A stretch of 64,000 bases of DNA from a virus (IMGVR_UViG_3300035698_027961:1-64000); one strand, 5' to 3'. Numbered from the stretch's first letter, positions 24,652 to 44,398 are shown. Notes: generated by a model not told the origin, from the sequence alone. Made by a program: numbers and translations.

Positions 24652-25644
24652 TTAATTATTACCAATATATTTTTTGATTTGCGATAGTAGAGAATCTTCC
24701 GTAATAATGGCGGGACTAACCAGCTTATTTGATTTGGACCAAGAAGCAACTTCGCATAGAAATCTTGTACCTATTTCATTCATTGGTGCGGCGTTAGTTG
24801 TAATAATATCACATCCAGATGCCTTAGCCTCATATAGGCTGAGCCCCAGGCCCTCCTGGCTCGATGGTGCGATAATACAACTAGACTCTCTATATATTTG
24901 ACCCACTTCTTCTCTGGTTAAATCTTTTTCAATAATATTAACTTGAGGAATATTATATTTCGAGTCTAACGGGGATTTCTTAACTCCCGTTATATTTAGA
25001 CTTATATCTGGATATATAATTGCGGCCCGTGAGAAGGCACTTATAACAAGCCTGGTATTCTTGGATGAAAAGTTTGGATTCAGGCTTCCCTGGTGATAGA
25101 ATACAATATTATCAAGCTTCCTTCCCGGATAGAACAAATTGGAATCTGTGAATTTCCAGCTTACCCTTGATACGTTTCTAAGTCCTGCATTATTCAATGT
25201 TTCTTTGGTGAAATCAGTTACAGCCCAAATATCTTTGAATTTATTATAAAGATTTATTAACCTTGGGTTAACCCACTCTATCATCGGAACATCTATAACT
25301 GGTATTCCTATTCCATCAATCCACTGAGATGATTCCATTAGAGTTTCTAATGATATCAATGCCTCCGCTTTATACTTGGATATTACCGACGCTATCTGCT
25401 GCTGATGATCCCTGCCGGAGTCAAAAATTGCGAAGCCATAGCCCTGAGAGTTGTGAGAGTGAAACTCTTTTCTGTAAATGCCATTTTCTTTTATGATTCT
25501 GCCTTTAGGTATCAACCAAACCTGATGGCCCCTATCTTCTAATTCTTTCTTGAGAGTTAGGCCAAGATATAGAAGGCCCGAAGGATGATCATAAGTTTTA
25601 ATCAGAAGTCTTTTTGGTAGATTTTGCAAGGTCCATCCTGTCAA
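24652..25644 (-). CDS. Glycosyltransferase, GT4-like (GT-B)
   Basis: PSSQEGLGLSLYEA (E-x7-E) and PMNE. Confidence 0.85.
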   Translation of the reverse strand: MTGWTLQNLPKRLLIKTYDHPSGLLYLGLTLKKELEDRGHQVWLIPKGRIIKENGIYRKEFHSHNSQGYGFAIFDSGRDHQQQIASVISKYKAEALISLETLMESSQWIDGIGIPVIDVPMIEWVNPRLINLYNKFKDIWAVTDFTKETLNNAGLRNVSRVSWKFTDSNLFYPGRKLDNIVFYHQGSLNPNFSSKNTRLVISAFSRAAIIYPDISLNITGVKKSPLDSKYNIPQVNIIEKDLTREEVGQIYRESSCIIAPSSQEGLGLSLYEAKASGCDIITTNAAPMNEIGTRFLCEVASWSKSNKLVSPAIITEDSLLSQIKKYIGNN

Positions 25645-26320
25645 TAGAGGCTTTTCTTATTTCTTTAATATTCTCTGCGTGCTTAAGCTGAATATCACTT
25701 CTCTGAGTTAGAGAACCGCCATTGGGAATAATTCGATAATAGTACATAACCTTGTGAATATATTCTATTGGGTATAGCTCACTGATTCTTAGCCAGTAAT
25801 CATAATCTTCCGCTATCCAATACTTCTCATTGAATGGTCCAATTTTGTTAAAGACATCCCTTCTAATTGTTGTAGAGCCAGAGGCTACAAAGTTTTGGGA
25901 CATAAGCCTTGAATGATTGATTATTATTTTTTGAGGATAGAACTGCGGCCTGACCCTTCCGTTTACCAATATCTTATAGTTTCCGCATACCATTCCAAGT
26001 TCTGGATTATTAATCATGGCATGAACAGAGCTGAATAATTTGTCTTGATTCATAATATCATCATCATCTAAAAAGCTAATCAAAGGTGCTGTGGTCATGG
26101 ATATTCCATAGTTTCTAGCTCCACCAGGGCCCACATTTTCAGGCGTCTTGATGAAGTTAACCTGAGGATATCTTTTTTTCAAACCAGATATATCTGATGT
26201 TGAGCAATCATCAACTACAGTAAGTTTGTAATCTTTATATGACTGATTTAGGCAACTATCAATAGCTTCGACTATATACGACTTGGGATTATAAGTCGGC
26301 ATAATTATATCAACTTTCAT
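25598..26320 (-). CDS. Glycosyltransferase family 2
   Basis: IIMPTYN, VVDDCS, GGARN, FLDDDD and EDYDYWLR. Confidence 0.93.
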   Translation of the reverse strand: MKVDIIMPTYNPKSYIVEAIDSCLNQSYKDYKLTVVDDCSTSDISGLKKRYPQVNFIKTPENVGPGGARNYGISMTTAPLISFLDDDDIMNQDKLFSSVHAMINNPELGMVCGNYKILVNGRVRPQFYPQKIIINHSRLMSQNFVASGSTTIRRDVFNKIGPFNEKYWIAEDYDYWLRISELYPIEYIHKVMYYYRIIPNGGSLTQRSDIQLKHAENIKEIRKASIDRMDLAKSTKKTSD

Positions 26321-27245
26321 ATTCTAAATACTTCCTCGCGTAATCTATTGGTGAGTTCTTAAGATTGTCTATAACGAATTGCCTTCCGTTGCTTGCAATC
26401 TTATCATAAAGAAGTGAGTCGCTCATTACTTCCTCTATGGCTTCGCAATAAGCATTTAAAGTTTTGGGAACTACTATCCCGTCGTGTCTATTAGATAGCT
26501 CTAAATTTATCTTGGGATGAATGATACACGGAATTTTAGCATAAAGCTGCTCAATTATGGTGCATCCCATTGTCTCGCTCAAGGATGTCGAGAAATAAAT
26601 ATGAGACTGCTTAGCAGAACGAATATGCTCAGAGTAATTATAAGGACTTGGGTAGCCTATAAATTTAAACTTAAACTGAGGAAGATTTTTTGCCACCAAG
26701 AGCGCAAAGTCTACATCCTTAACCATCTGCCTGGAATTACCCTTCCATAGAATGGTTCCATCATCATTGTGAACCGGCTCCCATAGATTTAAATTAGGAG
26801 CTATCCTGAGTAGGTCTATTTTATTATCGTCTATGCCATAGAGCCTGGCTATCTTTGATTTTAATTTATGATTTACCGTTAGTATTTTACTGAAAGCATC
26901 AATTTCAAGATATCTTGATTCTTCTTCTCGATTAACAGTATCTATCAGGTTTGGCCCGGATATTATCTTTATCGAATTATTAAACATTTTAATTATGTTT
27001 ACAAACTCTAATGAAATTCCGCTCCAATGATGTAGAACTTCTGATTTCTTAACAGAGGCTTTTATAGCTTTTGTATCTCGTAAATTCTTGACATTAGGAT
27101 AAGTGCTTGGAATTTTTGAAAAAACATTGACTTCGTAGCCGAGACCTCTGAGTGATTCCGCAAAGCTAACGAGAGAAACGCCGGGGCCATTAAAGTGGCA
27201 TCCGGCGTTTCCATAATTAAAAGTTATTATGGTAACTGTTTTCAA
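26310..27245 (-). CDS. Glycosyltransferase, GT4-like
   Basis: STSLSETMGCTIIE and a C-terminal GT-B pattern. Confidence 0.8.
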   Translation of the reverse strand: MKTVTIITFNYGNAGCHFNGPGVSLVSFAESLRGLGYEVNVFSKIPSTYPNVKNLRDTKAIKASVKKSEVLHHWSGISLEFVNIIKMFNNSIKIISGPNLIDTVNREEESRYLEIDAFSKILTVNHKLKSKIARLYGIDDNKIDLLRIAPNLNLWEPVHNDDGTILWKGNSRQMVKDVDFALLVAKNLPQFKFKFIGYPSPYNYSEHIRSAKQSHIYFSTSLSETMGCTIIEQLYAKIPCIIHPKINLELSNRHDGIVVPKTLNAYCEAIEEVMSDSLLYDKIASNGRQFVIDNLKNSPIDYARKYLEYES

Positions 27246-27246
27246 C

Positions 27247-27564
27247 CTAAGAGTTCCTGTTAAATAAATCCTCTAGGGATTCTTTTCCCTTAAATCCAAC
27301 CATTCTGTCTACTTCCTTTCCGCCTCTAAAAACTATTAGGCATGGAATACTAGTTATTGAATATTGGGCCGAAATTGCTGGAAAATCAGATACATTTACC
27401 TTTCCAATACTAACCGCGCCATCATACTTCTCAGACATTCCGTCAAGAACGGGACCTAGAATCTTACATGGTCCGCACCAAGCGGCCCAAAAATCAACGA
27501 CAACAGTCTTCTCATTTTGGATAAATTCGTTAAAGCTTTCGCTATTTAATTCTTCAACTGCCAT
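27247..27564 (-). CDS. trxA: Thioredoxin
   Basis: VDFWAAWCGPCK and SIP. Confidence 0.97.
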   Translation of the reverse strand: MAVEELNSESFNEFIQNEKTVVVDFWAAWCGPCKILGPVLDGMSEKYDGAVSIGKVNVSDFPAISAQYSITSIPCLIVFRGGKEVDRMVGFKGKESLEDLFNRNS

Positions 27565-27572
27565 AAAATCTC

Positions 27573-27788
27573 CTAGTGGACTTCGTAGTATGAATTAACG
27601 GACATATCTTCCATTATCATGACTAATACGCTATCCTGTTCATCTTTGCTCATTTTGACGAAATCTTCAAAAAGTTCTTTTGCATACTCTGAGGCCAGCG
27701 TTCTTATGTAGTTAGATTCACCACCACTTTTACTGTAAGCTTCCAGTATTCTTAAAGATTCCTCAAATGATCCTTTAGTTAGAAACAT
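27573..27788 (-). CDS. Hypothetical protein (start revised to MFLTKG)
   Basis: The track ORF 27573-27845 overlaps a better-supported ORF at 27775-27933, so the internal ATG at 27788 is preferred. Confidence 0.5.
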   Translation of the reverse strand: MFLTKGSFEESLRILEAYSKSGGESNYIRTLASEYAKELFEDFVKMSKDEQDSVLVMIMEDMSVNSYYEVH

Positions 27789-27933
27789 CTTTTTTATCCC
27801 CCGTATCCTCCTCTGTCTTTTTATCAGAGTCTTCAACAAGGTCATCTACGGTATATCTTTCTTCCTGTGAGGCTGTTTTGGCTCCGTCTTTCTTTACGAA
27901 AACCTTAACCTCTCCATCTTTCTTAAAACTCAT
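27775..27933 (-). CDS. Small charged protein (52 aa, not in ORF track)
   Basis: GGAGG RBS. MSFKKDGEVKVFVKKDGAKTASQEERYTVDDLVEDSDKKTEEDTGDKKDVSN*. Confidence 0.6.
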   Translation of the reverse strand: MSFKKDGEVKVFVKKDGAKTASQEERYTVDDLVEDSDKKTEEDTGDKKDVSN

Positions 27934-27977
27934 TAAGCCTCCTGGCACTATTTACAATAGTATATCCCAATATAAAT

Positions 27978-27985
27978 ATATTACC
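27978..27985 (-). promoter_or_regulatory. Putative promoter motif GGTAATAT
   Basis: Member of the recurring GGTAHTAT set. Confidence 0.4.
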
Positions 27986-28002
27986 GCAAGGATTTGATTT
28001 TT

Positions 28003-29577
28003 TTAGATCAATTTCAAGAACCTGAGGAACTTTAGAAGTAATGATTCCTTGGCGGTAGCAACCGGTTTATTTATATGATCGGAATCCTGGTCAGAAGTGT
28101 TATCCTCCGCGCCAGTCACCGAGTTTTCAAGGGCAGCCTCGTCCTTGGAATTTTGCAGAAAGTTCATTTTTTCTACTTCCAGTAAAATTAATCTAAGTGA
28201 TTCGCGTAGTTTACTGATTTCGATATCTCTAGACTCATCTGAGGTTTCTTTTACATTTTTACCACCAGCCGAACCTAATTTTTCATTAAATGCCCGCACT
28301 AAATCTCTGCCTTTACTATAATCAATTGATCTTTTTATAGCTTTAGCGGGAGTAATCGTGTTTTTGTTCTTTCTAGGGCCATCTTCCGCTAAGGCAAACT
28401 CATCTATCGACTGACTCTCTATAAGTCTTTTCTTAATGAGTATATCCCTACTTTTTTCACGTATCTTTATAAGTTTTTTAGATTCAGATTCAAGAAACTT
28501 AAGGTAAGCATCGCCAGACATGCTCTGTGATAAATCTAGCCTCTCAGAAATATTTATTTTCTTCGGAGAGTCATCGGACGCATCTTCACAGGATAAGCTA
28601 AACCTATTTGCCTTAGCCCTCATGAATGTCTCTGCTGCCTTGCCCCTAAGGCCAGATTTGTAGTACTCGGCAGTCTCTCTCAGCCCATCATCAAAATTCT
28701 TTACAATATGGTATCCAAAAGATTCACTTGCCCAGCCGGTATCCGCCTGAGAGCATCTAACATCACCGGCCCGCTCTTTTCTGTAAAAAGGCTCCATACA
28801 ACCTAACTTTTCGTGTAGCTCATTTACTGTAACTTTAATGCCGGAACCAACATTAAAGACCATATGTTTTAATGGCATTGAAAAAGTTGATGCCAAATAA
28901 TTCGCCTCAACTACGTTATCAACATGAGTGAAGTCACGGTATTGTTCACCATCCCCATGAATGATTGGCCTAATTTTTAATTTATTGCATTCTAAAAATG
29001 AAGATATTACCGAGGCATATGGTGAATCACCTCTCTGACGGTTGCCAAAAACATTAAAATACCTAAGACAAACAGTTTCATTCTTATAAATCTTGGAAAA
29101 AAGTTCGCAAAGTTCTTCGCCAAACTTCTTATGCATTGCGTAAGGAGACTTGGGGCTTAGAGGGGTGTCTTCCGGTGTTGGTAGAATCTGGGATCCTCCA
29201 TAAACCGAAGAAGAGGATGAGAAGATAAATCTAGCACCGTGTTCTTTCGCAAGATTAAGAACATTAACCGTCCCCATAATATTTACATCTGATGTTTCAA
29301 CAGGCTGCTCAACCGAATAATACACTCCGGGAATTGCAGCAAGATGAAATACATAATCAGGCATAAAGCTATCAAAAACTTTCTGTAGTGATTTCATATC
29401 TCTGATATCAACTTGTTCAAAGGAAAGGCGCGGATTATCACTATGCTGGTCTAAATTGGCTAGGTCTCCACGGCTTAGATTGTCAATCACACAGACTTCA
29501 AACCCCTTATACATAAGTTTATCAACTAGGTGGCTTCCTATGAAGCCACATCCGCCAGTAACTATTGCTTTTTTCAT
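28003..29577 (-). CDS. NAD-dependent nucleotide-sugar epimerase/dehydratase (SDR) with a ~210-aa C-terminal extension
   Basis: GGCGFIG, HLAA, SSSSVYG, SPYAMHK (YxxxK), RYFNVFG and RDFTHV. Confidence 0.9.
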   Translation of the reverse strand: MKKAIVTGGCGFIGSHLVDKLMYKGFEVCVIDNLSRGDLANLDQHSDNPRLSFEQVDIRDMKSLQKVFDSFMPDYVFHLAAIPGVYYSVEQPVETSDVNIMGTVNVLNLAKEHGARFIFSSSSSVYGGSQILPTPEDTPLSPKSPYAMHKKFGEELCELFSKIYKNETVCLRYFNVFGNRQRGDSPYASVISSFLECNKLKIRPIIHGDGEQYRDFTHVDNVVEANYLASTFSMPLKHMVFNVGSGIKVTVNELHEKLGCMEPFYRKERAGDVRCSQADTGWASESFGYHIVKNFDDGLRETAEYYKSGLRGKAAETFMRAKANRFSLSCEDASDDSPKKINISERLDLSQSMSGDAYLKFLESESKKLIKIREKSRDILIKKRLIESQSIDEFALAEDGPRKNKNTITPAKAIKRSIDYSKGRDLVRAFNEKLGSAGGKNVKETSDESRDIEISKLRESLRLILLEVEKMNFLQNSKDEAALENSVTGAEDNTSDQDSDHINKPVATAKESLLLKFLRFLKLI

Positions 29578-30572
29578 TTAATTATCCTTTTTAGTGAGCC
29601 AATATCATTTAAATACATTTCTTTCAGAAGTTTCTTCCAGTCATAATTCGATGACCAACCAAGCTTATCGGAAGCCTTACTGGGATCGCCGCGTAAGAAT
29701 AATACCTCGGACGGCCTCATAAATCTAGAATCTTCCCTATATATATCTGAGAAATTTAATTCGGCCAGGCTACAGACGTACTCAAACATCTCTTTAATTG
29801 TAGCACCTGTTCCGGTAGAGATTAGATAATCATCAGGAGAATCTTGCTGAAGCATCATCCACATCGCTTTAACGAAATCCTTGGAGTGACCCTCATCCCT
29901 GAATGCTTCTAGATTTCCCATTCTTACTTCGGACTTAAGACCCAGCTTAACTGAGGCAACCCCCGATGTTATTTTCCTGGTTGCAAAGTCGTGCCCTCTT
30001 CTTGGGCTGGAATGGTTGAATAACATTCCATTGCATGCAAAAATATCATAAGCTTCTCGATAGTTAATCACAGACCAGTATGCGGCAACCTTAGATACGC
30101 CATATGGTGACCTGGGATGAAACGGTGAATCTTCCGTATATCCAGAGTTTGGACATCCGATACCTCCCCACATTTCGCTAGTGCTGGCCTGATAAAAACG
30201 AGTTGACGGAGAGAATTGGCGAATCAATTCTAGCTGATTAATGACAGCCTCAGAGTTAACCCTGAACGTTAATTGCGGCTCACAGAAAGACTGTCCGACA
30301 TTTGACATTGCGGCCAAGTTATACCATTCATGTGGCTGATAATCATGCAGGACTCTTGAGATAAGTGTTGGGTCTAAAATATCACCATATATAATTTTAA
30401 AATTATCATTAGGTAATAGATGCAGAACGTTATCTATACATAGGTATGTACTCTTTCGCCTAGTTATTCCGATAACGGTATAGCCTTTGCTTAGCAAGAG
30501 TTCTGACAGATACGATCCATCCTGACCGGCGACTCCAGTAATTACCGCAGTTAGTCCCTTATGAGTTGTCAA
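29574..30572 (-). CDS. gmd: GDP-mannose 4,6-dehydratase
   Basis: TGVAGQDGSYL, YQASTSE, PRSPYGVSK, FNHSSPRRG..F.TRKI and RPSEV..L.GD.SKA. Confidence 0.95.
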   Translation of the reverse strand: MTTHKGLTAVITGVAGQDGSYLSELLLSKGYTVIGITRRKSTYLCIDNVLHLLPNDNFKIIYGDILDPTLISRVLHDYQPHEWYNLAAMSNVGQSFCEPQLTFRVNSEAVINQLELIRQFSPSTRFYQASTSEMWGGIGCPNSGYTEDSPFHPRSPYGVSKVAAYWSVINYREAYDIFACNGMLFNHSSPRRGHDFATRKITSGVASVKLGLKSEVRMGNLEAFRDEGHSKDFVKAMWMMLQQDSPDDYLISTGTGATIKEMFEYVCSLAELNFSDIYREDSRFMRPSEVLFLRGDPSKASDKLGWSSNYDWKKLLKEMYLNDIGSLKRIIK

Positions 30573-30780
30573 TTATATCTCCTGTGCGACGATCATAAAA
30601 ATAAGCCAATACGTCTTTCAAAACACTCCACACAAGGTGCGCGGCCTTTATCCATATTTGAAATTTTTTCCATGTTATATATTAGGTACCTTATCTCTTT
30701 TCCAATGGCCCCGAAAAAATCATATTTTATTTCTTTTGATATTTAAAATTTAACAATATAGCTTAGGAATCAGAAAATAA

Positions 30781-31167
30781 CTAATCCTCCAGTTCAAAGT
30801 ATTCAACGGCAGCTTTTGAAAATTGACGTGCGGTCATATTAGAAATTTCCTCTAACCTGTCTATATTATAGAGTAGGTATTCTTTTTCCAGCTCGGTAAA
30901 TATAGGAGAATTTGAAATAAGATCAAGAGCCTTGCCTGGGTCTTTTTCTAGCAACTTAATTGAAGCAACCTTATTAATCCAGGCGTATGAAAAATCTTTA
31001 TTTGAATCGTTATTCGAATTAAAATTTTCATAAAATGCACTAGATTTGTAAGCATCCTTTAGCTTATCGACTCTATCATATATATCTGTTTCTTTACCTT
31101 CTGGCTCATCTTTAGAGAATCTAGAGGATTTTTTCTCAACTCTTTTTACAACGCCACCTTTACTCAT
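30781..31167 (-). CDS. Hypothetical protein
   Basis: 128 aa. Shares an EKD......I.....F.E.EK..L motif with the adjacent ORF. Confidence 0.6.
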   Translation of the reverse strand: MSKGGVVKRVEKKSSRFSKDEPEGKETDIYDRVDKLKDAYKSSAFYENFNSNNDSNKDFSYAWINKVASIKLLEKDPGKALDLISNSPIFTELEKEYLLYNIDRLEEISNMTARQFSKAAVEYFELED

Positions 31168-31171
31168 TCGA

Positions 31172-31759
31172 TTATCCTAAGTTATCTTTGATTATTTTTT
31201 TAATTTGTTCTATATTTTCAAACTTGGAAAATAAATAGCCATATTTTCCGAAATTGTTCATAGAAAATATAACGTTAGTCTTTGATTCTTCAGAGATTAA
31301 TATGGATGACATTATAGAAGAGAATGCTTCGGGTTCTTTTAAAGTACTTTCGCAACGATTACCAAGTGCGTTAAAGGGAAATGGAATACTAAGCTGTTTT
31401 TGGTCTTTCATACCAATCACTAATAACGTTGAATTTATTATATCTAATTTCGCTAAATCTGTGATATATTCGTTATTAATTATATCATTTAAATATTTTG
31501 CCATTTTAGAACTAGATGATCCATCTTTATGAAGCTTAATTAAATTATTCTTAAAATCTTGCTTAAGGAGCCCAATTAGATGTTCCGTTAAGATATTCTT
31601 TTCGGTCTCATTGAAAGTTGCCGTAGATAAAATCTCTTTTATAAAAGTTTCTTTATCTTTTTCATTTTTTACTAGCGCATCTTTGAACTCTCTGGCGCAC
31701 GATGATGCCCGAAGCCTTCTTTTCCTCTCTTCGCTATCCAATTCAGTTAAAGTTGTCAT
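31172..31759 (-). CDS. Hypothetical protein
   Basis: 195 aa, tightly packed within the cluster. Confidence 0.6.
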   Translation of the reverse strand: MTTLTELDSEERKRRLRASSCAREFKDALVKNEKDKETFIKEILSTATFNETEKNILTEHLIGLLKQDFKNNLIKLHKDGSSSSKMAKYLNDIINNEYITDLAKLDIINSTLLVIGMKDQKQLSIPFPFNALGNRCESTLKEPEAFSSIMSSILISEESKTNVIFSMNNFGKYGYLFSKFENIEQIKKIIKDNLG

Positions 31760-31763
31760 ATAC

Positions 31764-32597
31764 CTAATCCTTTCTAAATTTATTTCTTTCTTTAATAGCG
31801 GCCTTTAAGACTCTTCTTGGTGTGCCCTTCTTCTTCATAAATTGCAACAAAGCATTTGTATCCTTCGGAAAACACGCCCCGCCATAACTAAGCTTGCCAT
31901 CCGGCCCAGGGACAGATACGTGATTTGAAGAGATCCACGAGTTATCAAGCATCATAGATAATACTTTATTGTAGTCCGCTCCGGTTTCTTCACAGAGGGT
32001 ATAAAATTCATTAAAAATTTGCACTTTAATAGCATAAAATGAATTAGCGAAAAGCTTCATCGACTCTGACTCTTCAGGGCTAGATGTCGAAATCTTAGCA
32101 TTAGGAAATAAGTCTTTATACATGTGAACCATAACTTCTTCATCATCTGAATTAACAGAACCTATGACTATGTGCTTTTGGTTTCTAAAGTCTTCAACCG
32201 CAGTTCTTGCCGTTAGAAATTCTGGATTATGAACCATTCTAAGTCCATATTTTATAGCAAGGTCTCTGGTTGTCTCTGGCTCAACCGTGCTTTTAATAAC
32301 AACAATTCCCTCATATGAGTTATTCTTAAGAATCTTACATGTATCATATATTGCTGACTTGTCAAACCCGACTTTATCAACGTATGGTGTCGGAAGGCAT
32401 AAAAATACAACATCTGTGTTAATAACTCTATCGATACTTCCAATTCCATTGTACTTATCGTAAGCGTTCAAACTATATTTGCCATCAAAGGTCGGAAGCT
32501 TTTCGGACAGCACCATTCTCATAGCCCCTCCGACAAATCCGAGGCCGATGATTCCTATGCGCATACTTAATCCTTTATTTGGTGTAGGCTGATTCAA
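31764..32597 (-). CDS. UDP-glucose/GDP-mannose dehydrogenase family, short form
   Basis: GLGFVG, CLPTP, KSTV.P, NPEFL and YGGACFPKD (catalytic Cys). Ends without the C-terminal UDP-binding domain. Confidence 0.88.
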   Translation of the reverse strand: MNQPTPNKGLSMRIGIIGLGFVGGAMRMVLSEKLPTFDGKYSLNAYDKYNGIGSIDRVINTDVVFLCLPTPYVDKVGFDKSAIYDTCKILKNNSYEGIVVIKSTVEPETTRDLAIKYGLRMVHNPEFLTARTAVEDFRNQKHIVIGSVNSDDEEVMVHMYKDLFPNAKISTSSPEESESMKLFANSFYAIKVQIFNEFYTLCEETGADYNKVLSMMLDNSWISSNHVSVPGPDGKLSYGGACFPKDTNALLQFMKKKGTPRRVLKAAIKERNKFRKD

Positions 32598-35405: not shown

Positions 35406-35406
35406 A

Positions 35407-36087: not shown

Positions 36088-36694
36088 CTTTTCTTACCAT
36101 GTAGATTGTTTTAAATATTCGTTCAAATGCTAAGCCGTGAGAGTTAATTTTCTTTAAAAATTCATGTAATTCTTCCTCGGTATCCCTCCTGATGCCAAAC
36201 CTAGAGATATCCATGATGACGCATCCATGGCTCTTAAATGATTCTAGTAGCTTATCGGTATTTTCATTATTATAGGTTGAGACGAAATTAAATGTTATTA
36301 ACAAATCGTACAGATTACTATTTGGAAATCTATCCAATAATAACTTAAACTTGCCTGCATTTTTGAATTTATTAGAAACCATTGACTTTAAATGCTCTGA
36401 ATCATCCAACCTATCCTTTCTGACCTCAATACCTGTAACATTATTAAATCCCAAAGCCGATAGTGCAATAGGTATCTGGCCCATGCCGCATCCAGGTTCG
36501 CATATTGCAGCATTCTTATCAAACTCCTCGCTAATGAATTTGATTATTTCTATTTCGGATTCCCCGAGAGCCATTCCTTGCGAAATTTTTGTAGAGTAGT
36601 AGTTATCGAAAGCTTCTCTAGTCTCACATATATGCTTGATCTGTTCGGTCATAATCTCATTTATCTTTTTAATTTTTTGCATCCCCATCACCAT
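36080..36694 (-). CDS. Class I SAM-dependent methyltransferase
   Basis: ICEPGCGMG and VTGIE. Confidence 0.8.
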   Translation of the reverse strand: MVMGMQKIKKINEIMTEQIKHICETREAFDNYYSTKISQGMALGESEIEIIKFISEEFDKNAAICEPGCGMGQIPIALSALGFNNVTGIEVRKDRLDDSEHLKSMVSNKFKNAGKFKLLLDRFPNSNLYDLLITFNFVSTYNNENTDKLLESFKSHGCVIMDISRFGIRRDTEEELHEFLKKINSHGLAFERIFKTIYMVRKVD

Positions 36695-37790
36695 TATCCA
36701 TAAAGCTTAGAGCTTTAAATACTTCATCTGAAGTTACATATTTTAAACTAACACGAGAGCCATATGCTATCTTGCTTAATTTGTCAAAAATACTATTGAT
36801 ATTATCATCTAATAGCGGAAATTTATATTCCCCATCAACCTCGTACTCTGAAGAAAGACTGTGCGAATATGTCTTGAAAAATAATGTGCCGTTAATGATG
36901 GGTGAGCCTGCGATCATATCATAAATAAACTTACCATGGTTTGATATATTTTCGGCTACAACGTCAGAGTAATTATCAATAGAGCTAGTCGGGTGCTTTA
37001 ATCTTGAGTTCCAAATCGTAATCCTGTTCTTAACCATAACTTTGCTACCAAAATTTATAGCCATCGGATCCGAATTAATATAGTCGTAAGACCGCCATAT
37101 TGAGGGGGTTAGGCATGAAAAAGGACTCCTTATGTGAGGATCGCATTTCTTACGACCAGCCGGAAAAGTAAAGTCGGCACTGCAGCCGGCCCTTCTTAGT
37201 ATATCTAACTCACCCTCCAGCTGACAAACTCTTCTATCTGAAGCATTGAGGCCCCACTTTCCATGAACGAAGTGCCATGTTTTAAAGTCCCTTCCGGTAT
37301 TGTTCCTTAGAAATCTAAGGCACATATTCAAATAAAGCGAAAACCTCTTTTCATCATCGGTCATAGTTCCTGCGTTAATAAGTTCTCTTATCTTCGCATC
37401 CCTTGCCGGCTCCTCACTTCTGGTAAAATGCTCATGATGAATGTGCAGCTGAATGTCCATCTTTGTCTCTTCAGATATTTTCTTTAGAATTTTTCCAGAA
37501 CTAATCGTGATATCATTTTCTACAAACCCAATGGAGTCATCTTCAAAGAAATGGCCAGAGCCATCATCTTCGTCTCTAGATATTACAGCAAAAGTTGGTC
37601 TAAAAAATAGACTCATCTTTCTAGTATGTTTCTGAGAATTAGATTTCTCTATGAAAGAATCTATATGCCTTTCCTCAATAATTTTATTCGAGTCTAACGT
37701 TGTTGGTTCAAAATGATCTATATGAAAGCATAATATTTTCTTAATTCCTCTTGAATATAGTAAATCAGAAATTTCTTTATCCGTGTACAT
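36669..37790 (-). CDS. His-rich putative metallo-hydrolase (polysaccharide deacetylase-like)
   Basis: HIDHFEP, QLHIHHE, FVHGKWGLN and GCSADFTFP. Confidence 0.5.
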   Translation of the reverse strand: MYTDKEISDLLYSRGIKKILCFHIDHFEPTTLDSNKIIEERHIDSFIEKSNSQKHTRKMSLFFRPTFAVISRDEDDGSGHFFEDDSIGFVENDITISSGKILKKISEETKMDIQLHIHHEHFTRSEEPARDAKIRELINAGTMTDDEKRFSLYLNMCLRFLRNNTGRDFKTWHFVHGKWGLNASDRRVCQLEGELDILRRAGCSADFTFPAGRKKCDPHIRSPFSCLTPSIWRSYDYINSDPMAINFGSKVMVKNRITIWNSRLKHPTSSIDNYSDVVAENISNHGKFIYDMIAGSPIINGTLFFKTYSHSLSSEYEVDGEYKFPLLDDNINSIFDKLSKIAYGSRVSLKYVTSDEVFKALSFMDNGDGDAKN

Positions 37791-38878
37791 TATATTATTC
37801 CGTTTATACTTCTTAGCAGAGAGCCGAAATCATGGTTAATTTCTACTCTACTCTCTGACTTTATCAGTGACGCTGACTTTTCAACCCACTCATCTACATC
37901 ATATATATCACTACAAACAGAGCTATCAGGATATAGTTCGCTCCATCCGCAATTATTAGAAACTAAAATATTTGAACCTGCCATAATTGCCTCCTTAATA
38001 ACGTTCGGAGAGGCGTCGTAATATGATGTGCAAATAACTAATTTTGAATTTTGAATTATTTTAATAACTTCAGTTTGATTCATCAGGTTATACTTTTTGC
38101 AGTTACTAACTCCTGCAAAAATATTGCTCCCTTCACCTATAACTACTTTTTTATTGCTTTTGAACGATTTATTTGACATCAATTTTAAAGCCAACTTTGA
38201 ATTTTTAACTGGCCTATTTAGATTAGAGCATATGAACGCTATGTCTATTTCCCTATCTGAGAATTTTTTCCCAATTTCTATTTTATGATTAAATGCCATA
38301 GATGTATCTATCGGTTGCTTAATTTTTTTATTTTTCCCGTAGTTCTTAATTAGTATTTTTGATGCCTGATGGCTATTGGGAATTACTAAGTCTGCCTTTT
38401 TAACACAGGATGCCTCGGGAGCAAAAAATAAAGGTTCCATTCTTGATTCTGTATAGCTGACGGATGATATATTTCTAGATGATAATTCAGACATCTGTGG
38501 CGAACCTGTTACTAGATAAACATTTTTTACCCCAGGAAACATAGGCCCTGAAATAACCGGGGCAGCATAGTTTTTTGACAAAATTATATCAGGAGTACCC
38601 TTCAGATACTTTTCAATTATCTTTACAGCCATCTGTTTACTGTCTCTATCGCCAATTCTAAAAACTCCACCTATGTTGTCTATATCTACAACCACGTCTT
38701 TGTTTTCAAAGAAAATACAGGCAACGGTGTGGCCGTGAAATCTTAGATACTTTACTAAAGCATAAGAGTTTGTAGCTGCGCCACCATAATAAGGATACTG
38801 AGTGCTAGTAATTAATATTTTAGACATTATATTTTTATAAACTCGATAAAAGCTCGACTTCTTAATTCCCATGACCAA
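37790..38878 (-). CDS. Glycosyltransferase, GT4-like
   Basis: PYYGGAA, IPNS, RPVKN and TSYYDASPNVIKEA. Confidence 0.85.
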   Translation of the reverse strand: MVMGIKKSSFYRVYKNIMSKILITSTQYPYYGGAATNSYALVKYLRFHGHTVACIFFENKDVVVDIDNIGGVFRIGDRDSKQMAVKIIEKYLKGTPDIILSKNYAAPVISGPMFPGVKNVYLVTGSPQMSELSSRNISSVSYTESRMEPLFFAPEASCVKKADLVIPNSHQASKILIKNYGKNKKIKQPIDTSMAFNHKIEIGKKFSDREIDIAFICSNLNRPVKNSKLALKLMSNKSFKSNKKVVIGEGSNIFAGVSNCKKYNLMNQTEVIKIIQNSKLVICTSYYDASPNVIKEAIMAGSNILVSNNCGWSELYPDSSVCSDIYDVDEWVEKSASLIKSESRVEINHDFGSLLRSINGII

Positions 38879-39738
38879 TTCTGTTCTATTTGGTCTCGAA
38901 GATAAATTCCATTTTTAGAAACCTGCTCACTGGTGGTTGAAATGATGGTCTTTTTTAATGCAGCTTCTGTTGAGACGATTGCTATGTCTTTATTCCTATT
39001 AATTAGCTGAGGAACATTTCCAACATTGGTTGATATAATGTTTCTACCACATGATGCCGCTTCAAGAATTGGATTTGGTGTTCCCTCGGAAGTGCTAAAG
39101 CAAATTAATGTGCCTATCGAGTTATAAAATTTATTCATTTCTTGACGGCCGTATCCACTCTTATGAGTCGCAATCTTAAGTGTTGATTTAACATCTTTTA
39201 ATGCAAATATTTTTTCAATTACATCAAATCTCTTCACATCCCTATCACGATTTCCAACCCAACCAAAAACACTAGCATACTCTGATGGATCGCTGATGGG
39301 CTTAAAAAAATCTGATTCGACGCCAAAGGGAGTATTAAATATTTTTATACCAAGGCTAGCGCATGGCTGCTTAAACTCATTATACAAATAATTACTCGAA
39401 GTACTTATTGCGTCATATATAATAAAAGACTTAGCCATCTTATCAGCCTTCGGTCTTCCGACATGGCTTGATACGGTAGTAATTAACCTATAGGATCTCT
39501 TGCCTCTGGGATCTAGATACTTATTTATAATTCCATATATTGGCCAGTTTAGAAGATAAACTATGTCGAACCCGTCTAGATCGGACCTTGACTTAATCTC
39601 TTTAAAGTGAGTTATTTTGCTTGTATGTTCAGGAAGGTACTTAACCAGTGCATTTGCCCTGCTTGATAATGCCCAATTATAACTATCAACTACATAGAGT
39701 ACATTTTTCATACGGCATCGCCAAGAACTGACTCCCAC
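38827..39738 (-). CDS. Glycosyltransferase, GT4-like
   Basis: PFGV, GWVGN and STSEGTPNPILEAASCG..IISTNVG. Confidence 0.88.
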   Translation of the reverse strand: MGVSSWRCRMKNVLYVVDSYNWALSSRANALVKYLPEHTSKITHFKEIKSRSDLDGFDIVYLLNWPIYGIINKYLDPRGKRSYRLITTVSSHVGRPKADKMAKSFIIYDAISTSSNYLYNEFKQPCASLGIKIFNTPFGVESDFFKPISDPSEYASVFGWVGNRDRDVKRFDVIEKIFALKDVKSTLKIATHKSGYGRQEMNKFYNSIGTLICFSTSEGTPNPILEAASCGRNIISTNVGNVPQLINRNKDIAIVSTEAALKKTIISTTSEQVSKNGIYLRDQIEQNWSWELRSRAFIEFIKI

Positions 39739-40628
39739 GATGATATAAAATCCTTGATGTGAAAATGCTTAATAGCTATTTCGCGAGCTGAGTTGCCAAA
39801 ATCATTTCTCATCATAGATGAGCCAAGAAGTCTCTTTATTTCCAGAACTATTTCTTTATCATCATTTGATAAAATAGCGTTCTTTTTATGAGCAAAGTAC
39901 TTAGATATTTCGTAATTATTTGTAGATACAATTGGCATTCCGCACATAGCTGCTTCGGCTCGACTTCTCGGCATGGCGGAAGAGTGAGTTGGATTAAAAT
40001 ATACACTGTAAGAGTTATATATTCTTATCAGCTGTTCAAAATCTTCAGCCTGTCTATCTACTTTATATAGATCCAGGTTGCCATGCCCAACTACGTCAGC
40101 TATCTGAAGTTTGGAAGAAACCCTATCCCATAGCGGAAATCCCATAACATGAGATCTTGACCTGAAAGCATTTGCTACTGTAAGAATTCTTTTATTTTTT
40201 TCCAAATTTAAATTACAAAATTCTTCAGGATCATATCCATGAACTATATAATAGTGCCTTTTATCTGGAAACTTTTTGCTGTAGTTAGTCATAACATCGA
40301 GAGAGTTCCACACAACATGCCGACAGTAGCTAGGTATGTCAAATGGGGTGGTGGTTTGAACTACCGCTATAGGAACTGCACCTTTCTTAACGAAGTATGA
40401 AACTCTTTCACGCTGAACTGGAGATCTGACAATAACTACATCAAAATTTTCATCTCTTAGGCTTGCCTCATCGGATAATGTTATATTTTCATTAAGAGGT
40501 CGGTGTTTTTCGTTCCAGCTTGGAATCTTTTTATTTGCACCAACCAAGCATATATCATGATTTATTTTGGCAAATTCTCTCTGATGCCCCTGATGAACAT
40601 ACCAGTCTAAAATCTTAAGTCTTGTCAT
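39708..40628 (-). CDS. Glycosyltransferase, GT4-like
   Basis: VHGYD and YFNPTHSSAMPRSRAEAAMCGMPIVS. Confidence 0.8.
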   Translation of the reverse strand: MTRLKILDWYVHQGHQREFAKINHDICLVGANKKIPSWNEKHRPLNENITLSDEASLRDENFDVVIVRSPVQRERVSYFVKKGAVPIAVVQTTTPFDIPSYCRHVVWNSLDVMTNYSKKFPDKRHYYIVHGYDPEEFCNLNLEKNKRILTVANAFRSRSHVMGFPLWDRVSSKLQIADVVGHGNLDLYKVDRQAEDFEQLIRIYNSYSVYFNPTHSSAMPRSRAEAAMCGMPIVSTNNYEISKYFAHKKNAILSNDDKEIVLEIKRLLGSSMMRNDFGNSAREIAIKHFHIKDFISSWESVLGDAV

Positions 40629-41725
40629 ATTTTTATAATCTCCATCTCTATAAGTTTTGATACATTTTCAACGCTCATAGAATTTGCAATTTCGGAACAT
40701 AAAGTACCTTTATCTTTATATTTTTTATGATTGATATATACATCTTTTAGTAATTCGGACAAGTGCAACTCGCTTGGATATGCCCACCTCTGATAATTTC
40801 CATATAGGTGGGACCACTCCATATCTGATACGGGGCCCAGGTTATGATTTATAATGTGGGCAGAATTATTATCCAGGTATTCCGTAACGCCGCCATACTT
40901 GGTTGTCACAATCTGCTTACCCATTCTCATAGCGTCATGAATGGGCATGCCCCAGCCCTCACCATGATGCGGGGCAACATAGCAGTCTCCAGTATTATGA
41001 AGCATCTTAATAAATCTGCTGGAAATAACCTTGCTTGAAAGATATATGGGTGGATAGTATTTTAAATTAAGCTCTCTCTTTAAATTTATGATATCTGGCC
41101 TTATCAAGTCTTCTGTGTGCCCGGCTATATTTAGAGGGTTTACTTTTAATATTAAGATAACATCGTCTTTTTTAGAAAAAGCTTTATAGTACGAGCGAAG
41201 TAGGGTCTTCCAATTCTTTCTATTCTGCCATTGAAATATTGAATAAAATTTATAAGTCTCATCGCTAACTACGTAATCTCTTGAAAAGCCTGACGGAATT
41301 TGAATTTTCTCTTTAGCTGTCCAGTCGTTACATGGCGTTGGAATTACTTTAATCTCACCCCTGTACTTTGAAGCTATGCAGGCTTCTTTAACTAATTCGC
41401 ATGGAACCCACAATTCGTCGACCTGATTAATACTATGAGACCACGACCTAGGAAGCCTGTCAGCTTCCCAATAAAAGTAGCCAACCTTATAAGAATTACT
41501 CTTATGCCTGTTATATGGTGGGCAGTGAAGATAAAAGTCTATTTCAGTTTTTCCCTCATAATTATTTAGCTTAGATATGACCGAATTTTTGTCACTTACG
41601 GGTGATAGTTGAAATTTTGTATTTACGCTCGAAATAGCAAAAGCTTTTGCAAAGTTAGCAACAGCGTTGCCATAACCCGTATGAGAGCTTAATGGGCCAA
41701 AAAATCTAACCGCCTTCATTGCCAC
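40625..41725 (-). CDS. Glycosyltransferase, GT4-like
   Basis: TGYG, WE, RKNW..LL and PHHGEGWGMPIHDAM. Confidence 0.88.
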   Translation of the reverse strand: MAMKAVRFFGPLSSHTGYGNAVANFAKAFAISSVNTKFQLSPVSDKNSVISKLNNYEGKTEIDFYLHCPPYNRHKSNSYKVGYFYWEADRLPRSWSHSINQVDELWVPCELVKEACIASKYRGEIKVIPTPCNDWTAKEKIQIPSGFSRDYVVSDETYKFYSIFQWQNRKNWKTLLRSYYKAFSKKDDVILILKVNPLNIAGHTEDLIRPDIINLKRELNLKYYPPIYLSSKVISSRFIKMLHNTGDCYVAPHHGEGWGMPIHDAMRMGKQIVTTKYGGVTEYLDNNSAHIINHNLGPVSDMEWSHLYGNYQRWAYPSELHLSELLKDVYINHKKYKDKGTLCSEIANSMSVENVSKLIEMEIIKI

Positions 41726-41728
41726 CTC

Positions 41729-43252
41729 CTATACATATTCGCCTTGCAATATATCTATACTTTTATCGACCTGTGTATATCGTGTCCCTACGGATTCGAG
41801 AATGTCAATAAAGCTTTTCTGTATTGTTTTTATATCGTGATTCCCTGCAACATAATTTCTTGCCGACATAATAACATCCAGCCTATCTATGTTTTTCAAT
41901 ATTAATTCAGCATCCACTTTGGCATCCCCAGATATTGCGAAACATGTTTTGCCATCAGTGAGTATGTCCGGAATGGCGCCGACCATATTTGAAAAGACTG
42001 GAACCCCAGAAGACATAGCTTCCAATATTGATATGGGTGTCCCCTCCATATTAGATGCTAAAACGAAGGCATCAAAAGATGGAACATATTCGTGAACATT
42101 ATTTTTATGCCCTAGAATTTTAAAGTTACTTAGATCTTTTGCTAAAATCTTTAGCGATTTTCTTTCGGGTCCATCACCTATAACCACTATGGTATCGTTT
42201 TTTAAAACTTTAGCTAAGTCTATAAGATACTCTATATTCTTTTCTTTAGATAGCCTGGCCACCGTTCCTATAACACTCCCATTGAAATTTGATAAGTAAT
42301 TATTTTTTACATCAGACGGATAAAATAAATCAGAATCTATTGGTATTGGCAACACAGATCTCTTGAATTCCCCACTTATGTTGGCGGCTAATGATTTGGA
42401 TACCACAATCATATGTTCAAGCTCTTCTCTCGATGTTACCTTTGATAAAGAGCCTGACCATTCAAAATCGCTGTGATAAATCTCCATCAGGTAACTTGAT
42501 ATTTTGCCCTCTTTCTTAAGAGCAATCATCCTTCTATAAATATCCTCACTGTTATAATACAGAACTATATCATAGTCATTGGATATCATGTGACCTGGCA
42601 AATGCACCGGGGACTTTAATAGTACGTGAGATACATTATCCTGCGTGATTAAATTCTGAAGATTGTTTTGCCTGAGATAGACAATCACGAAGTCAATCGA
42701 GTTAGTTTCGGAAATTAAGTTCTTAATATATATCTCTGCTCCGCCACAAATTTGATACGGAACAATAAAGCAGACTTTTCTTTTAAACTTTTCTGATGCC
42801 ACGATATCTAATACATGGGCGTTTTTAGCTATTTGTGGTTCAGACTCCTTACTTAATATGGCTTTTTTTATTTTTTCAGCCACGTCTTCTTCTTGAGATA
42901 TAATAATTCTTCCTATCTCTACGCTTCCGTATATATTCCTGTCTCTAGATATTCTAATTATACACTGCCCGTAATTCTTTTTGACATTCATACTTGCAGA
43001 AAAATTGGCCAAACTTGTGCCAAAATTAATTTCTTGGCTTAATATGATATCATTTTGCCCACTAAGAATCTCTAATAATATCTTGCCATTACCGGATCTC
43101 TTTTTGCCCATGATTTTGATCATATGCTGGCCTGATTTCAAATTAATATCATGATAAAAGCTAGAGGACTTTAGCGCAAGAATACTGTTGCCTCTAATTT
43201 CAAAACTTTTACCAATCCATTTTTTTGCATCTATAGAGTCAAATACTTTCAT
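41729..43252 (-). CDS. Glycosyltransferase, GT4-like, with an N-terminal beta-sandwich domain
   Basis: GGAE, VARLSKEKN and ASNMEGTPISILEAM. The ~120-aa beta-rich N-terminus may bind carbohydrate. Confidence 0.88.
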   Translation of the reverse strand: MKVFDSIDAKKWIGKSFEIRGNSILALKSSSFYHDINLKSGQHMIKIMGKKRSGNGKILLEILSGQNDIILSQEINFGTSLANFSASMNVKKNYGQCIIRISRDRNIYGSVEIGRIIISQEEDVAEKIKKAILSKESEPQIAKNAHVLDIVASEKFKRKVCFIVPYQICGGAEIYIKNLISETNSIDFVIVYLRQNNLQNLITQDNVSHVLLKSPVHLPGHMISNDYDIVLYYNSEDIYRRMIALKKEGKISSYLMEIYHSDFEWSGSLSKVTSREELEHMIVVSKSLAANISGEFKRSVLPIPIDSDLFYPSDVKNNYLSNFNGSVIGTVARLSKEKNIEYLIDLAKVLKNDTIVVIGDGPERKSLKILAKDLSNFKILGHKNNVHEYVPSFDAFVLASNMEGTPISILEAMSSGVPVFSNMVGAIPDILTDGKTCFAISGDAKVDAELILKNIDRLDVIMSARNYVAGNHDIKTIQKSFIDILESVGTRYTQVDKSIDILQGEYV

Positions 43253-44343
43253 GATAATTCCAGTATCTTTCTTGCGGCGTTTTCCCAGGTAAATTCATTG
43301 ACCGTTTTGTCCGCAGAGTCTCTAAAGTTTTCAAATAGGTCTTTGCTTTTATATGCGGAAAGCATAAGCTCTGCAAGATGATCTTGCTTAGGGATAAATG
43401 TTTTTGCACCCTCACTGGGAATCCAATACTGGTATCTTGCGTCTGCCTCTATTTCAGAAACATCACATAGTAAAGAATTTGAATCATTAAGAAAGTCTAA
43501 TTGGCCTGTACACCTTGGCGCTATAACTAGCTTCTTTGCGGCCAGTGCTTCCAGCATTGGCATACCGAAGCCTTCTGATGATGAAGCGCTGACTAGAGCG
43601 TCACAGGCATTGTATAAGGGTGTCATACTCGGAAGCCTATCACGAACTACCTCTACAGACGGGAGGCCTCCTGGCCTGCCCATATGCCTCTTCTGGGCAG
43701 AGATAATTATATCCCTAACATTAACCTCGAATTGATATTTTCGCTTGCTGGGTTCAAGCTTGGTCTTAAGAACTAGGCAGGTATCGTCCTGGTCTGAAAA
43801 TGCAGAGTAATAAGCGTTAAGAACTACGTCGATATTTTTTCTATAATGAGGTATCGATATATTTAAGAATTTAAATCTACGCCCTGAGCTCAGCCTATAC
43901 TCAGAATTATCTTTAAAATCCTCAATATTAATTCCATGTGGAACTACTATGCATTTTTCCTCAGGCCATCCGGCCTTGGTAAAGACTTCCTTGGAGAAGT
44001 TACTTGACGGAAGAACGAAGTCTACAAATCGGTGACTACCTTTCCAGTGCTCGGGAAGTATGTCGGTCTCATAGTTATAAATAGCCATCTTATTCTTGGA
44101 TGACTTTCTAAATCTAGATTCAAAATTTCTAGGAAGTGTATAACAAATATCTATGTCTGGGTTACTAAGCTCTTTATCTAGTCTAACCATAAGTTCTTTT
44201 GGAATTAATGAAGTTCCATTGGTTGATTTTAAATACAAATTATGATTTAGCCTTCTAAACTGAAGCAATATATTTCTCATGACAACCGACCATGAGTGGT
44301 CAGTCCCCAGCATAGTACAAGATCTTATATTCATCAGGTCCAC
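43249..44343 (-). CDS. Glycosyltransferase, GT4-like
   Basis: VPHGI, RKNID, SSSEGFGMPMLEA and FTWENAA. Confidence 0.9.
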   Translation of the reverse strand: MDLMNIRSCTMLGTDHSWSVVMRNILLQFRRLNHNLYLKSTNGTSLIPKELMVRLDKELSNPDIDICYTLPRNFESRFRKSSKNKMAIYNYETDILPEHWKGSHRFVDFVLPSSNFSKEVFTKAGWPEEKCIVVPHGINIEDFKDNSEYRLSSGRRFKFLNISIPHYRKNIDVVLNAYYSAFSDQDDTCLVLKTKLEPSKRKYQFEVNVRDIIISAQKRHMGRPGGLPSVEVVRDRLPSMTPLYNACDALVSASSSEGFGMPMLEALAAKKLVIAPRCTGQLDFLNDSNSLLCDVSEIEADARYQYWIPSEGAKTFIPKQDHLAELMLSAYKSKDLFENFRDSADKTVNEFTWENAARKILELS

Positions 44344-44353
44344 CTTAAGACAA

Positions 44354-44361
44354 ATAATACC
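44354..44361 (-). promoter_or_regulatory. Putative promoter motif GGTATTAT heading the glycan cluster
   Basis: Member of the recurring GGTAHTAT set. The inverted repeat AAAGTACT-TT-AGTACTTT lies just upstream at 44382-44399. Confidence 0.5.
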
Positions 44362-44398
44362 TTGGCGGCCTAAAAAACTCTAAAGTACTTTAGTACTT

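Follow-up and report, generated by a model that had tools for sequence, protein, structure and literature searches.

A soluble glycosylation island with conserved glycosyltransferase ends beside the tail genes of an uncultured salt-lake jumbo phage

Relation to known glycosylation systems

The fibrils of the Megavirinae (Mimivirus and its relatives) are glycosylated by clade-specific gene clusters of 6-33 genes (PMC10117803; reviewed in PMC9614988). Described here is a phage locus of related composition, an island of soluble glycosyltransferases (GTs) and sugar-modifying enzymes at positions 24652-44343 of IMGVR_UViG_3300035698_027961:1-64000. This stretch of 64,000 nucleotides (the window) makes up the first 64 kb of a virus record of 79.3 kb in IMG/VR and derives from an uncultured salt-lake phage of a jumbo-phage clade. 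Similar to the clusters of the Megavirinae, the island combines soluble nucleotide-sugar pathways with GTs, is directed at rare bacterial-type sugars and varies in content between clades; its size is also similar (~19-45 genes versus 6-33). It differs from them in its fixed GT blocks at both ends and in its tubulin neighbor, to which a GT can be fused. The Megavirinae are eukaryotic giant viruses whose glycans have been demonstrated chemically on virion fibrils, whereas the island belongs to a virus of a prokaryotic host and is known from its genes alone. We propose, with a probability of roughly 0.45, that the island serves to glycosylate phage proteins, probably those of the virion, in the cytoplasm, much as giant viruses do.

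Virion glycosylation has also been described for the actinobacteriophages Che8, Corndog, and Myrna (Freeman 2023, as cited in PMC12363180 and PMC12619734). As these sources summarize the work, soluble phage GTs, like those of the island, modify capsid and tail-tube proteins in the cytoplasm; unlike the island, the systems are presented with one to few GTs and without sugar-nucleotide pathways. The best cultured-phage matches of GTh, the first GT of the island, are tandem GTs of Streptomyces phages, with an identity of only ~27%, and these GTs are at most putative virion glycosyltransferases. Virion glycosylation machinery of the giant-virus and actinobacteriophage type is recognized by soluble virus-encoded GTs, with or without nucleotide-sugar pathway genes, and by a glycan covalently bound to virion proteins; the first of these features is present in the island.

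Large GT clusters in big phages are already known. The jumbo T4-like cyanophages P-SSM2, S-SCSM1, and S-SCSM2R (PMC12801897, PMC7824862) are likewise large lytic phages; their clusters hold many GTs (up to 13) along with epimerase and Kdo genes and are polymorphic between relatives. The scale of the island, called unusual for a phage in an initial annotation of this DNA, was overstated, given the 13 GTs among 22 such genes in S-SCSM2R (PMC12801897) and the Megavirinae clusters of up to 33 genes (PMC10117803). The cyanophage genes are more scattered, are read as host-surface modification and in S-SCSM2R include the export-related PgaA. In contrast, the phages considered here keep all their GTs together in a single island that has conserved ends and is flanked by tail genes and TubZ; it includes sulfotransferases and no export gene.

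Bacterial flagellin glycosylation islands and FlmG/Maf-type O-glycosylation systems (PMC7874193, PMC7591256) are similarly hypervariable, contain nonulosonic-acid pathways and glycosylate a secreted structural protein in the cytoplasm independently of a membrane, as is proposed for the island. A further likeness is found in the tetratricopeptide repeat (TPR)-GT architectures among the bacterial relatives of GTh. Unlike these systems, the island has no identified Maf or FlmG homologue, and its GTs are without TPR domains. Soluble GT4/GT2 enzymes also build or decorate polymers at the cytoplasmic face of the membrane in ABC-dependent O-antigen assembly (WbdA/WbdD type), which has methyl-type terminators, and in the case of prophage TarP, a phage-encoded soluble GT that uses host export. 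In contrast to these systems, the primer GT, Wzm/Wzt or TarGH, and the ligase are absent from the phage genomes tested and would have to be those of the host. No account was found in the literature searched of a single island that combines invariant GT blocks at its two ends, a hypervariable center with sulfate, methyl, amino-sugar, nonulosonic-acid, and Kdo-type chemistry, no membrane partners in complete genomes, and a tubulin fusion.

Glycosyltransferases of the island

The island contains 23 open reading frames (ORFs) of at least 89 residues, most with overlapping or abutting stops and starts, on the minus strand, as are the TubZ gene, the two giant tail-region genes, and the intergenic region ahead of the island. 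Domains were assigned with Pfam, NCBIfam, and PHROG profiles, ESM Atlas look-alikes, AlphaFold2 (AF2) models, and Foldseek. Eight ORFs score above the Pfam cut-off as GT4-type GT-B enzymes (Glycos_transf_1/Glyco_trans_1_4). Together with one probable GT-B enzyme and one GT2 enzyme, they account for the 10 GTs (nine GT-B, one GT2) of the initial annotation. In addition to the profile matches, an E-x7-E motif in GTa and the GT4 fold of the GTg model are as expected of GT4-like retaining GT-B enzymes in CAZy.

Four of the eight, GTh (43249-44343), GTg (41729-43252), GTf (40625-41725), and GTe (39708-40628), constitute, in this order, an invariant 5' block. At the 3' end, an invariant block is composed of GTb (26310-27245) and GTa (24652-25644), usually with the GT2 (25598-26320; Glycos_transf_2, 100.6 bits), which has a GT-A fold and a DDDD (DxD) motif, between them. 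The variable part between these blocks contains GTd (38827-39738), GTc (37790-38878; Glyco_transf_4 and Glycos_transf_1), and the probable ninth GT-B, a 395-residue protein (34218-35405) with a weak GT1 match (13 bits) and GT4 look-alikes in the ESM Atlas (0.98). An orthologue of 46% identity to the last protein is encoded in the island of contig L036; a related-locus search with this protein found no relative. One relative, G005, encodes a protein of 501 residues (L048:5240-6745, equivalent to G005 176240-177745) that joins a GTd-like GT4 domain with a class I S-adenosylmethionine (SAM) methyltransferase domain.

The GTh family has 23,987 database matches. The best non-phage relatives of GTh (P0245-P0390) are giant soluble bacterial proteins of 1000-5089 residues, and those scanned with Pfam (P0245, P0248, and P0249) comprise 3-6 GT4 domains and TPR repeats, with a GT2 domain in two and a methyltransferase domain in one. 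These relationships to actinobacteriophage tandem GTs and to soluble multi-GT TPR proteins are consistent with glycosylation of protein in the cytoplasm. All three scanned proteins match the Pfam family "GT4 in conflict systems".

GTg (Pfam, 87.7 bits) has an N-terminal β-jelly-roll (residues 1-120) resembling a carbohydrate-binding module (CBM), followed by a generic GT4 fold. In the AF2 model, the jelly-roll has a pLDDT of 91 and matches CBM4/6/16/22/61 at TM 0.6-0.75 in Foldseek, and the model as a whole matches the GT4 structures HepE, PimB', and BshA with E values of ~1e-16 to 1e-14. Because this conserved jelly-roll is CBM-like and precedes the GT4 fold, GTg probably binds a glycan as it extends it. 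Sequence matches of GTg include TarM and capsule or O-antigen GTs. An assignment of GTg as a TarM/GtfA-like enzyme was rejected, since its generic GT4 fold carries an N-terminal jelly-roll and not an inserted DUF1975.

Conserved ends and variable center

Relatives were gathered from IMG/VR by searches with TubZ and with a GTh alignment, yielding 14 contigs from ~10 distinct phages with sizes of up to 335 kb. Completeness is 100% for one of these genomes, which has terminal repeats, and 94% and 99% for two more; seven islands were read end to end. The island is present in all ~10 known relatives with a length of ~18-44 kb. In all 14 related contigs, the gene order is a 3247-residue protein, a 1511-residue protein, GTh, GTg, GTf, and GTe, with GTh, at 50-61% identity, always directly after the 1511-residue protein. 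The seven islands share a layout in which the GTh-GTg-GTf-GTe block forms the 5' end; GTb, usually the GT2, GTa, and TubZ form the 3' end; and 6 to ~35 genes constitute a variable center. Every Glycos_transf_1 match of each whole record, 6-11 per genome, is located inside the island. This confinement of the GT1-family genes, together with the contact between the 5' block and the 1511-residue tail-region gene in 14 contigs, argues for a link to phage proteins. In G002, the conserved GT2 is located ~40 kb from the island (196060-196530) rather than between GTb and GTa.

The dehydrogenase, epimerase, and dehydratase genes described below are within the island in all seven cases. The variable part of the relatives additionally encodes NeuB, CMP-sugar cytidylyltransferases, an enzyme of the DAHP_synth_1 family (KdsA-like), aminotransferases of the DegT type, hexapeptide acyltransferases, FkbM and other methyltransferases, GlmS, phosphomannomutase, a cupin, a GFO/IDH/MocA oxidoreductase, and an asparagine-synthase-like enzyme. 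The chemistry of the hypervariable center thus comprises nonulosonic-acid, Kdo-type, amino-sugar, methyl, and sulfate functions. Conserved ends around a hypervariable center mirror the fibril-glycosylation clusters of the Megavirinae (PMC10117803), a further point for virion glycosylation. The 40-kb island of G002 (L014, 246-260 kb) carries a non-glycan insert encoding a PARP-NUDIX protein of 1128 residues, a PcfJ-like protein of 1122 residues, and a DUF5591 protein of 825 residues, with a 710-residue multi-helix-turn-helix (Fis-type) protein nearby and three small single-pass or hydrophobic proteins alongside.

The 3' neighbor of GTa is fixed as well. GTa is fused to the N terminus of TubZ in G002, G003, and G009 (807-831 residues) and is separate from, and adjoining, TubZ in the window phage and in G005, G006, and G007. 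Across relatives, TubZ is 62-72% identical versus 33-42% for GTa. By its fusion with a cytoplasmic tubulin, seen in three lineages, GTa puts at least one GT on a cytoplasmic filament. Prediction of a complex between TubZ and GTa gave a score of 0.00, which is uninformative for or against binding. The separate GTa and TubZ ORFs overlap by 13-23 nucleotides in different frames in G005 (198301-200773), G006 (49003-51446), and G007 (706-3118), and a 64-nucleotide spacer with a TAGTATAAT motif lies between them in the window. These arrangements could reflect simple fusion and fission, or a frameshift site.

Membrane components and lysogeny

No candidate membrane segment was found in any island ORF in a Kyte-Doolittle scan (19-residue, threshold 1.6), although the scan picked out the tape-measure-like protein encoded outside the island; the earlier statement that the cluster contains no multi-pass membrane protein is therefore borne out. 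The families Bac_transf (PF02397), Glycos_transf_4 of the WecA/MraY type (PF00953), Polysacc_synt/Wzx (PF01943), and ABC2_membrane (PF01061) are absent from five records, namely G000, which is the record under study, G002, G003, G005, and G006. Wzy_C (PF04932) and PMT_2 (GT-C) are absent from eight records, and control genomes match all of these families. The lack of a flippase, polymerase, and initiating phospho-GT reported in the initial annotation consequently extends from G000 to relatives that are 94%, 99%, and 100% complete. The components by which a Wzx/Wzy- or ABC-dependent cell-surface polysaccharide locus is recognized (initiating phospho-GT, flippase or exporter, and polymerase or ligase) were not found. 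Among all ORFs of G002 (316 kb) and G005 (335 kb), several hydrophobic segments occur only in the tape measure, in a 219-residue M50 protease of G005, and in a handful of very small proteins, and no other multi-pass protein was found. Export genes elsewhere, which in the initial annotation would have counted against the proposal, were likewise not found in the phage genomes; host genes may still take this part.

Tested under ALTERNATIVES were DNA glycosylation, lysogenic conversion, and the supply of 3'-phosphoadenosine-5'-phosphosulfate (PAPS). No tyrosine integrase was found in eight records, which argues against classical lysogenic conversion and is in keeping with a virion-directed role; a plasmid-like carrier state is possible, given TubZ. 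No adenosine 5'-phosphosulfate (APS) kinase was found in the phage records, so sulfation would depend on PAPS from the host.

A promoter-like motif ahead of the island

The intergenic region ahead of the island (44344-44398) holds a promoter-like GGTATTAT motif at 44354-44361, ~12 nucleotides ahead of the GTh start and preceded by an AT-rich palindrome and a T-run. In the window, this extended -10-like motif (GGTATTAT/TGGTATAAT) occurs at 44354-44361, 23086-23093, and 10930-10937, 8-18 nucleotides before the starts of GTh, a UvsW helicase gene, and a diadenylate cyclase gene, respectively. A TGGTATAAT-like motif is retained before GTh in several relatives (L034, L036 at ~9984), 8-12 nucleotides from the start. 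A generic scan for sigma-70 promoters and terminators gave results not above chance. As judged by the motif spacing, transcripts would be nearly leaderless, including that of GTh as the first gene, and its occurrences imply one promoter class common to the island and to non-structural genes. The island is thus probably a transcription unit of its own and not merely the tail of a structural operon. Since a conserved promoter-like motif of its own stands at its start, its position beside the baseplate genes does not equate to co-transcription.

Proposed function and alternative explanations

In the proposed pathway, self-contained and cytoplasmic, GDP-mannose 4,6-dehydratase (GMD), an SDR enzyme, and a short dehydrogenase would supply modified sugars, a supply that in some relatives would be enlarged by the products of the GlmS, phosphomannomutase, NeuB/CMP-transferase, KdsA-like, aminotransferase, and acyltransferase genes. 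The conserved GTs (GTh, GTg, GTf, and GTe from one end; GTb, GT2, and GTa from the other) would build a core glycan, and the variable center would add lineage-specific sugars and methyl, sulfate, and (de)acetyl groups. Because the phage is without a lipid-carrier primer enzyme, flippase, polymerase, ligase, or exporter, the glycan would most likely be attached to a cytoplasmically produced phage protein. Virion proteins, for example, the adjoining giant tail-region proteins, would be the likeliest acceptors. Virions would thereby acquire a glycan coat specific to the strain, a situation known from giant viruses and some actinobacteriophages. Gene content, solubility, conservation, the architecture with a variable center, and the lack of export and DNA-hydroxymethylation genes are observed, whereas acceptor, step order, and biological benefit are what we infer. 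Glycosylation of phage proteins is the most economical explanation because complete genomes contain no membrane step, the GTs are in one island beside tail genes, conserved ends enclose a hypervariable rare-sugar center, one GT is on a filament, and the phages have a lytic look.

Several observations weigh against this explanation. No virion-protein acceptor was identified, Ser/Thr-rich acceptor tracts sought in the structural proteins were not found, and no GT fused to a structural protein was found. The promoter-like motif fronts the UvsW helicase and cyclase genes and not structural genes, and since it fronts the island together with non-structural genes, co-expression with virion genes is unproven. 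Synteny across one clade is inherited and does not constitute independent support. The figure of 0.45 is held at that value because no acceptor was identified, the adjacency to tail genes is inherited, and a separate promoter loosens the link to the structural genes. The suggestion in the initial annotation of a glycan assembled on virion proteins in the cytoplasm is thus supported in part; it fares well as to the soluble island without export genes and less well as to the virion.

Other observations that weigh against virion glycosylation favor the main rival explanation, remodeling of the host envelope, which we consider somewhat unlikely. At the cytoplasmic face, the phage GTs would extend a host lipid-linked primer, such as an undecaprenyl-pyrophosphate-linked sugar or a teichoic-acid-like polymer, and host flippases, ABC exporters, and ligases would display the glycan, altering the surface of the infected or carrier cell, perhaps as a block to superinfection or grazing. 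Lipid-linked pathways, too, normally employ soluble GT4 enzymes, and in O-antigen and capsule loci the GT4 and GT2 enzymes are soluble or peripheral as well. Methyl or sulfate groups could end chains as in ABC-dependent O-antigen systems, and TubZ proteins in some phages serve plasmid-prophage partition. The CBM-like module of GTg and its matches to TarM and to capsule and O-antigen GTs fit any glycan acceptor, including host polymers, and the motif ahead of the island is common to non-structural genes. In addition, comparable variable GT clusters of jumbo cyanophages have been published as host-surface modification (PMC7824862, PMC12801897). Against envelope remodeling, the host primer, flippase or exporter, and ligase would have to handle glycans that vary greatly even among closely related phages, not one membrane component occurs in any phage of the clade tested, the eight records contain no integrase, and one GT is fused to a cytoplasmic filament protein.

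A different cytoplasmic target is unlikely. The product could be a free or released glycan (a lysis matrix or an osmoprotectant-like compound) or a glycosylated host or non-virion phage protein, for example, the TubZ filament or its cargo. Soluble enzymes require no membrane for this, the GTa-TubZ fusion and the salt-lake origin are compatible with it, and the CBM-like domain of GTg suits elongation of a free glycan. However, nine to eleven GTs and hypervariable decoration resemble a selected surface structure and not a metabolite, and we know of no phage precedent. Highly improbable is DNA hypermodification, in which the GTs would glycosylate modified genome bases for restriction evasion: phage GT-B enzymes do glycosylate hydroxymethyl-pyrimidines, multi-sugar DNA glycans are on record (Pyle 2024, as cited in PMC12619734) and a uracil-DNA glycosylase (UDG)-family gene is nearby (20928-21590), but no ThyA-type hydroxymethylase (PF00303), the enzyme that would provide such an acceptor, was found in five records, three of them near-complete, with controls matching; Tet/JBP (PF12851) gave no match, as did its control; a gene content of GDP-mannose, nonulosonic-acid, and Kdo-like pathways together with sulfation and as many as 11 GTs goes far beyond any DNA glycan described; and the DNA assembled normally from four short-read metagenomes.

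If glycosylation of phage proteins does yield coated virions, complex virus-made glycans are not limited to giant eukaryotic viruses. To our knowledge, phage virion glycosylation is documented only for a few actinobacteriophages, with one to few GTs. A glycan coat would add a new dimension to phage diversity, comparable to the serotypes of bacteria, with possible effects on adsorption, brine stability, grazing, and recognition. A fuller version, in which virions carry a hypervariable, serotype-like coat, made wholly in the cytoplasm, that can bear sulfate, methyl groups, and nonulosonic acids, and the machinery is partly on a GT-TubZ filament, is rather unlikely; if true, the fibril glycosylation of giant viruses would have its counterpart in bacterial viruses, and a glycosylation line coupled to the cytoskeleton would be on record for the first time in a virus of prokaryotes. 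If instead the host surface is remodeled without a phage membrane protein, the island would show how far a lytic phage can commandeer host export. The island also offers, in compact form, soluble GTs, a sulfotransferase, and a short sugar dehydrogenase that is widespread and unstudied.

Sugar-nucleotide and decorating enzymes

The GMD, SDR epimerase, sulfotransferase, and GSCFA protein listed in the initial annotation were all recovered. GMD (29574-30572; Pfam, 344 bits) scores 335.7 bits on TIGR01472, under the equivalog cut-off of 415, and is retained in all relatives. The G005 GMD has 714 residues, with a LAGLIDADG-type insert between its two halves (L049:3723-5867, equivalent to G005 189723-191867), which looks like an intein or a homing-endonuclease insertion. 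The SDR epimerase/dehydratase (28003-29577) is GalE/TviC-like over residues 1-307 and has a charged, low-complexity C-terminal extension of ~210 residues that is found only in the window phage; the orthologues in relatives have 302-319 residues.

The UDP-sugar dehydrogenase of the initial annotation (31764-32597) does belong to the UGDH family, with N-terminal and central domains (PF03721 and PF00984) and the catalytic Cys motif GGACFPKD, but it is a short form without the C-terminal nucleotide-sugar-binding domain. It therefore lacks the three-domain organization of UDP-glucose and GDP-mannose 6-dehydrogenases, and the proposal of a uronic-acid glycan is weakened as a result. The C-terminal domain (PF03720) is absent from all five records tested. 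A split or frameshifted C-terminal domain was rejected, since the adjoining ORFs are unrelated and PF03720 is missing from every record tested. The short form is conserved at 262-281 residues in the window, G002, G003, G005, G006, G007, and G009. Among its 4959 homologues, the best 120 all have 257-331 residues and the same two domains, and many of these are encoded on contigs of 40-430 kb. By these matches, the short dehydrogenases are a widespread, unnamed family.

The sulfotransferase (35407-36087; Sulfotransfer_3, 37.6 bits) has PAPS-binding-like motifs, QRVGSHM for the 5'-PSB and RDNKLEVFLS for the 3'-PB. Sulfotransferases occur in three of eight records, always within the island. Of the one or two methyltransferases previously suggested, none scores above a cut-off: the 204-residue protein at 36080-36694 is class I methyltransferase-like below threshold (19 bits versus a cut-off of 30), and the 171-residue protein at 33511-34026, which has a Cys-rich N terminus, contains SAM-methyltransferase-like motifs (VVLDLSS and LKPGGSIV) that were noted by eye and are unconfirmed, with no Pfam, NCBIfam, or PHROG match. 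Similarly, the deacetylase-like protein of 373 residues (36669-37790) has polysaccharide-deacetylase look-alikes in the ESM Atlas (0.95), a lead only, and no Pfam match. The GSCFA-family protein (32575-33510; Pfam, 147 bits) is also present in G005; its homologues are taxonomically scattered and give no host signal.

The remaining island ORFs include a thioredoxin (27247-27564; Pfam), which is also found in G007 and had been missing from the earlier list, and a 90-residue ORF without assignment (27573-27845). An 89-residue ORF (34010-34279) overlaps the gene of the 395-residue protein and is 40-48% identical over 54-60 residues to an island gene of 285-294 residues in relatives, of which it is likely a remnant. 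Two unassigned ORFs of 195 and 128 residues (30781-31759) are absent from relatives and, at 0.30-0.34, are the outlier in an otherwise fairly even island GC content of 0.34-0.41; they are likely a recent insertion.

Neighboring genes and related sequences

From 79 kb to 44.4 kb, the minus strand encodes tail and baseplate proteins, including the tape-measure-like protein of 2063 residues. Upstream of the island are a gp25/sheath-initiator-like gene (62060-62491) and Baseplate_J (58738-62049). The cluster had been described as directly downstream of the baseplate genes; Baseplate_J is indeed upstream, but the two giant tail-region proteins of 3247 and 1511 residues (44399-58729), the fixed 5' neighbors of the island, intervene. 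These are candidate glycan acceptors by inference only. The 3247-residue protein contains a Laminin_G_3 domain, whereas for the 1511-residue protein, neither cultured phages nor the giant multi-GT protein P0248 gave a match. Below the island are the TubZ-like tubulin gene (23133-24587), which is outside the region originally delimited, the UvsW-like helicase gene, and the UDG-family gene.

Hc1 histone H1-like genes are present in three of five relatives (G002 163130-163249, G003 27614-27739, and G008 20839-20964). The 25 published genomes of "moraphage" jumbo phages have four core GT orthogroups, which were not analyzed in that study, and an Hc1 histone-like gene (PMC12619734). As compared by the reported traits of four invariant GTs and Hc1, the clade may be the moraphage lineage or its sister.

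DNA near-identical to the window (mostly at least 99% alike) occurs in four salt-lake metagenome runs from 2018-2020. Reads of these four DNA runs show only single-nucleotide polymorphisms and some loose ends against the island, and no structural variant of it was seen in them. Metagenome contigs of several runs match up to 27464-27498, 31187-31670, and 33608-33611 and then continue into unrelated sequence. These breaks are located within the thioredoxin gene, the 195-residue ORF, and the 171-residue ORF and point to recombination break-points and to relatives that occur alongside the phage and differ in island content.

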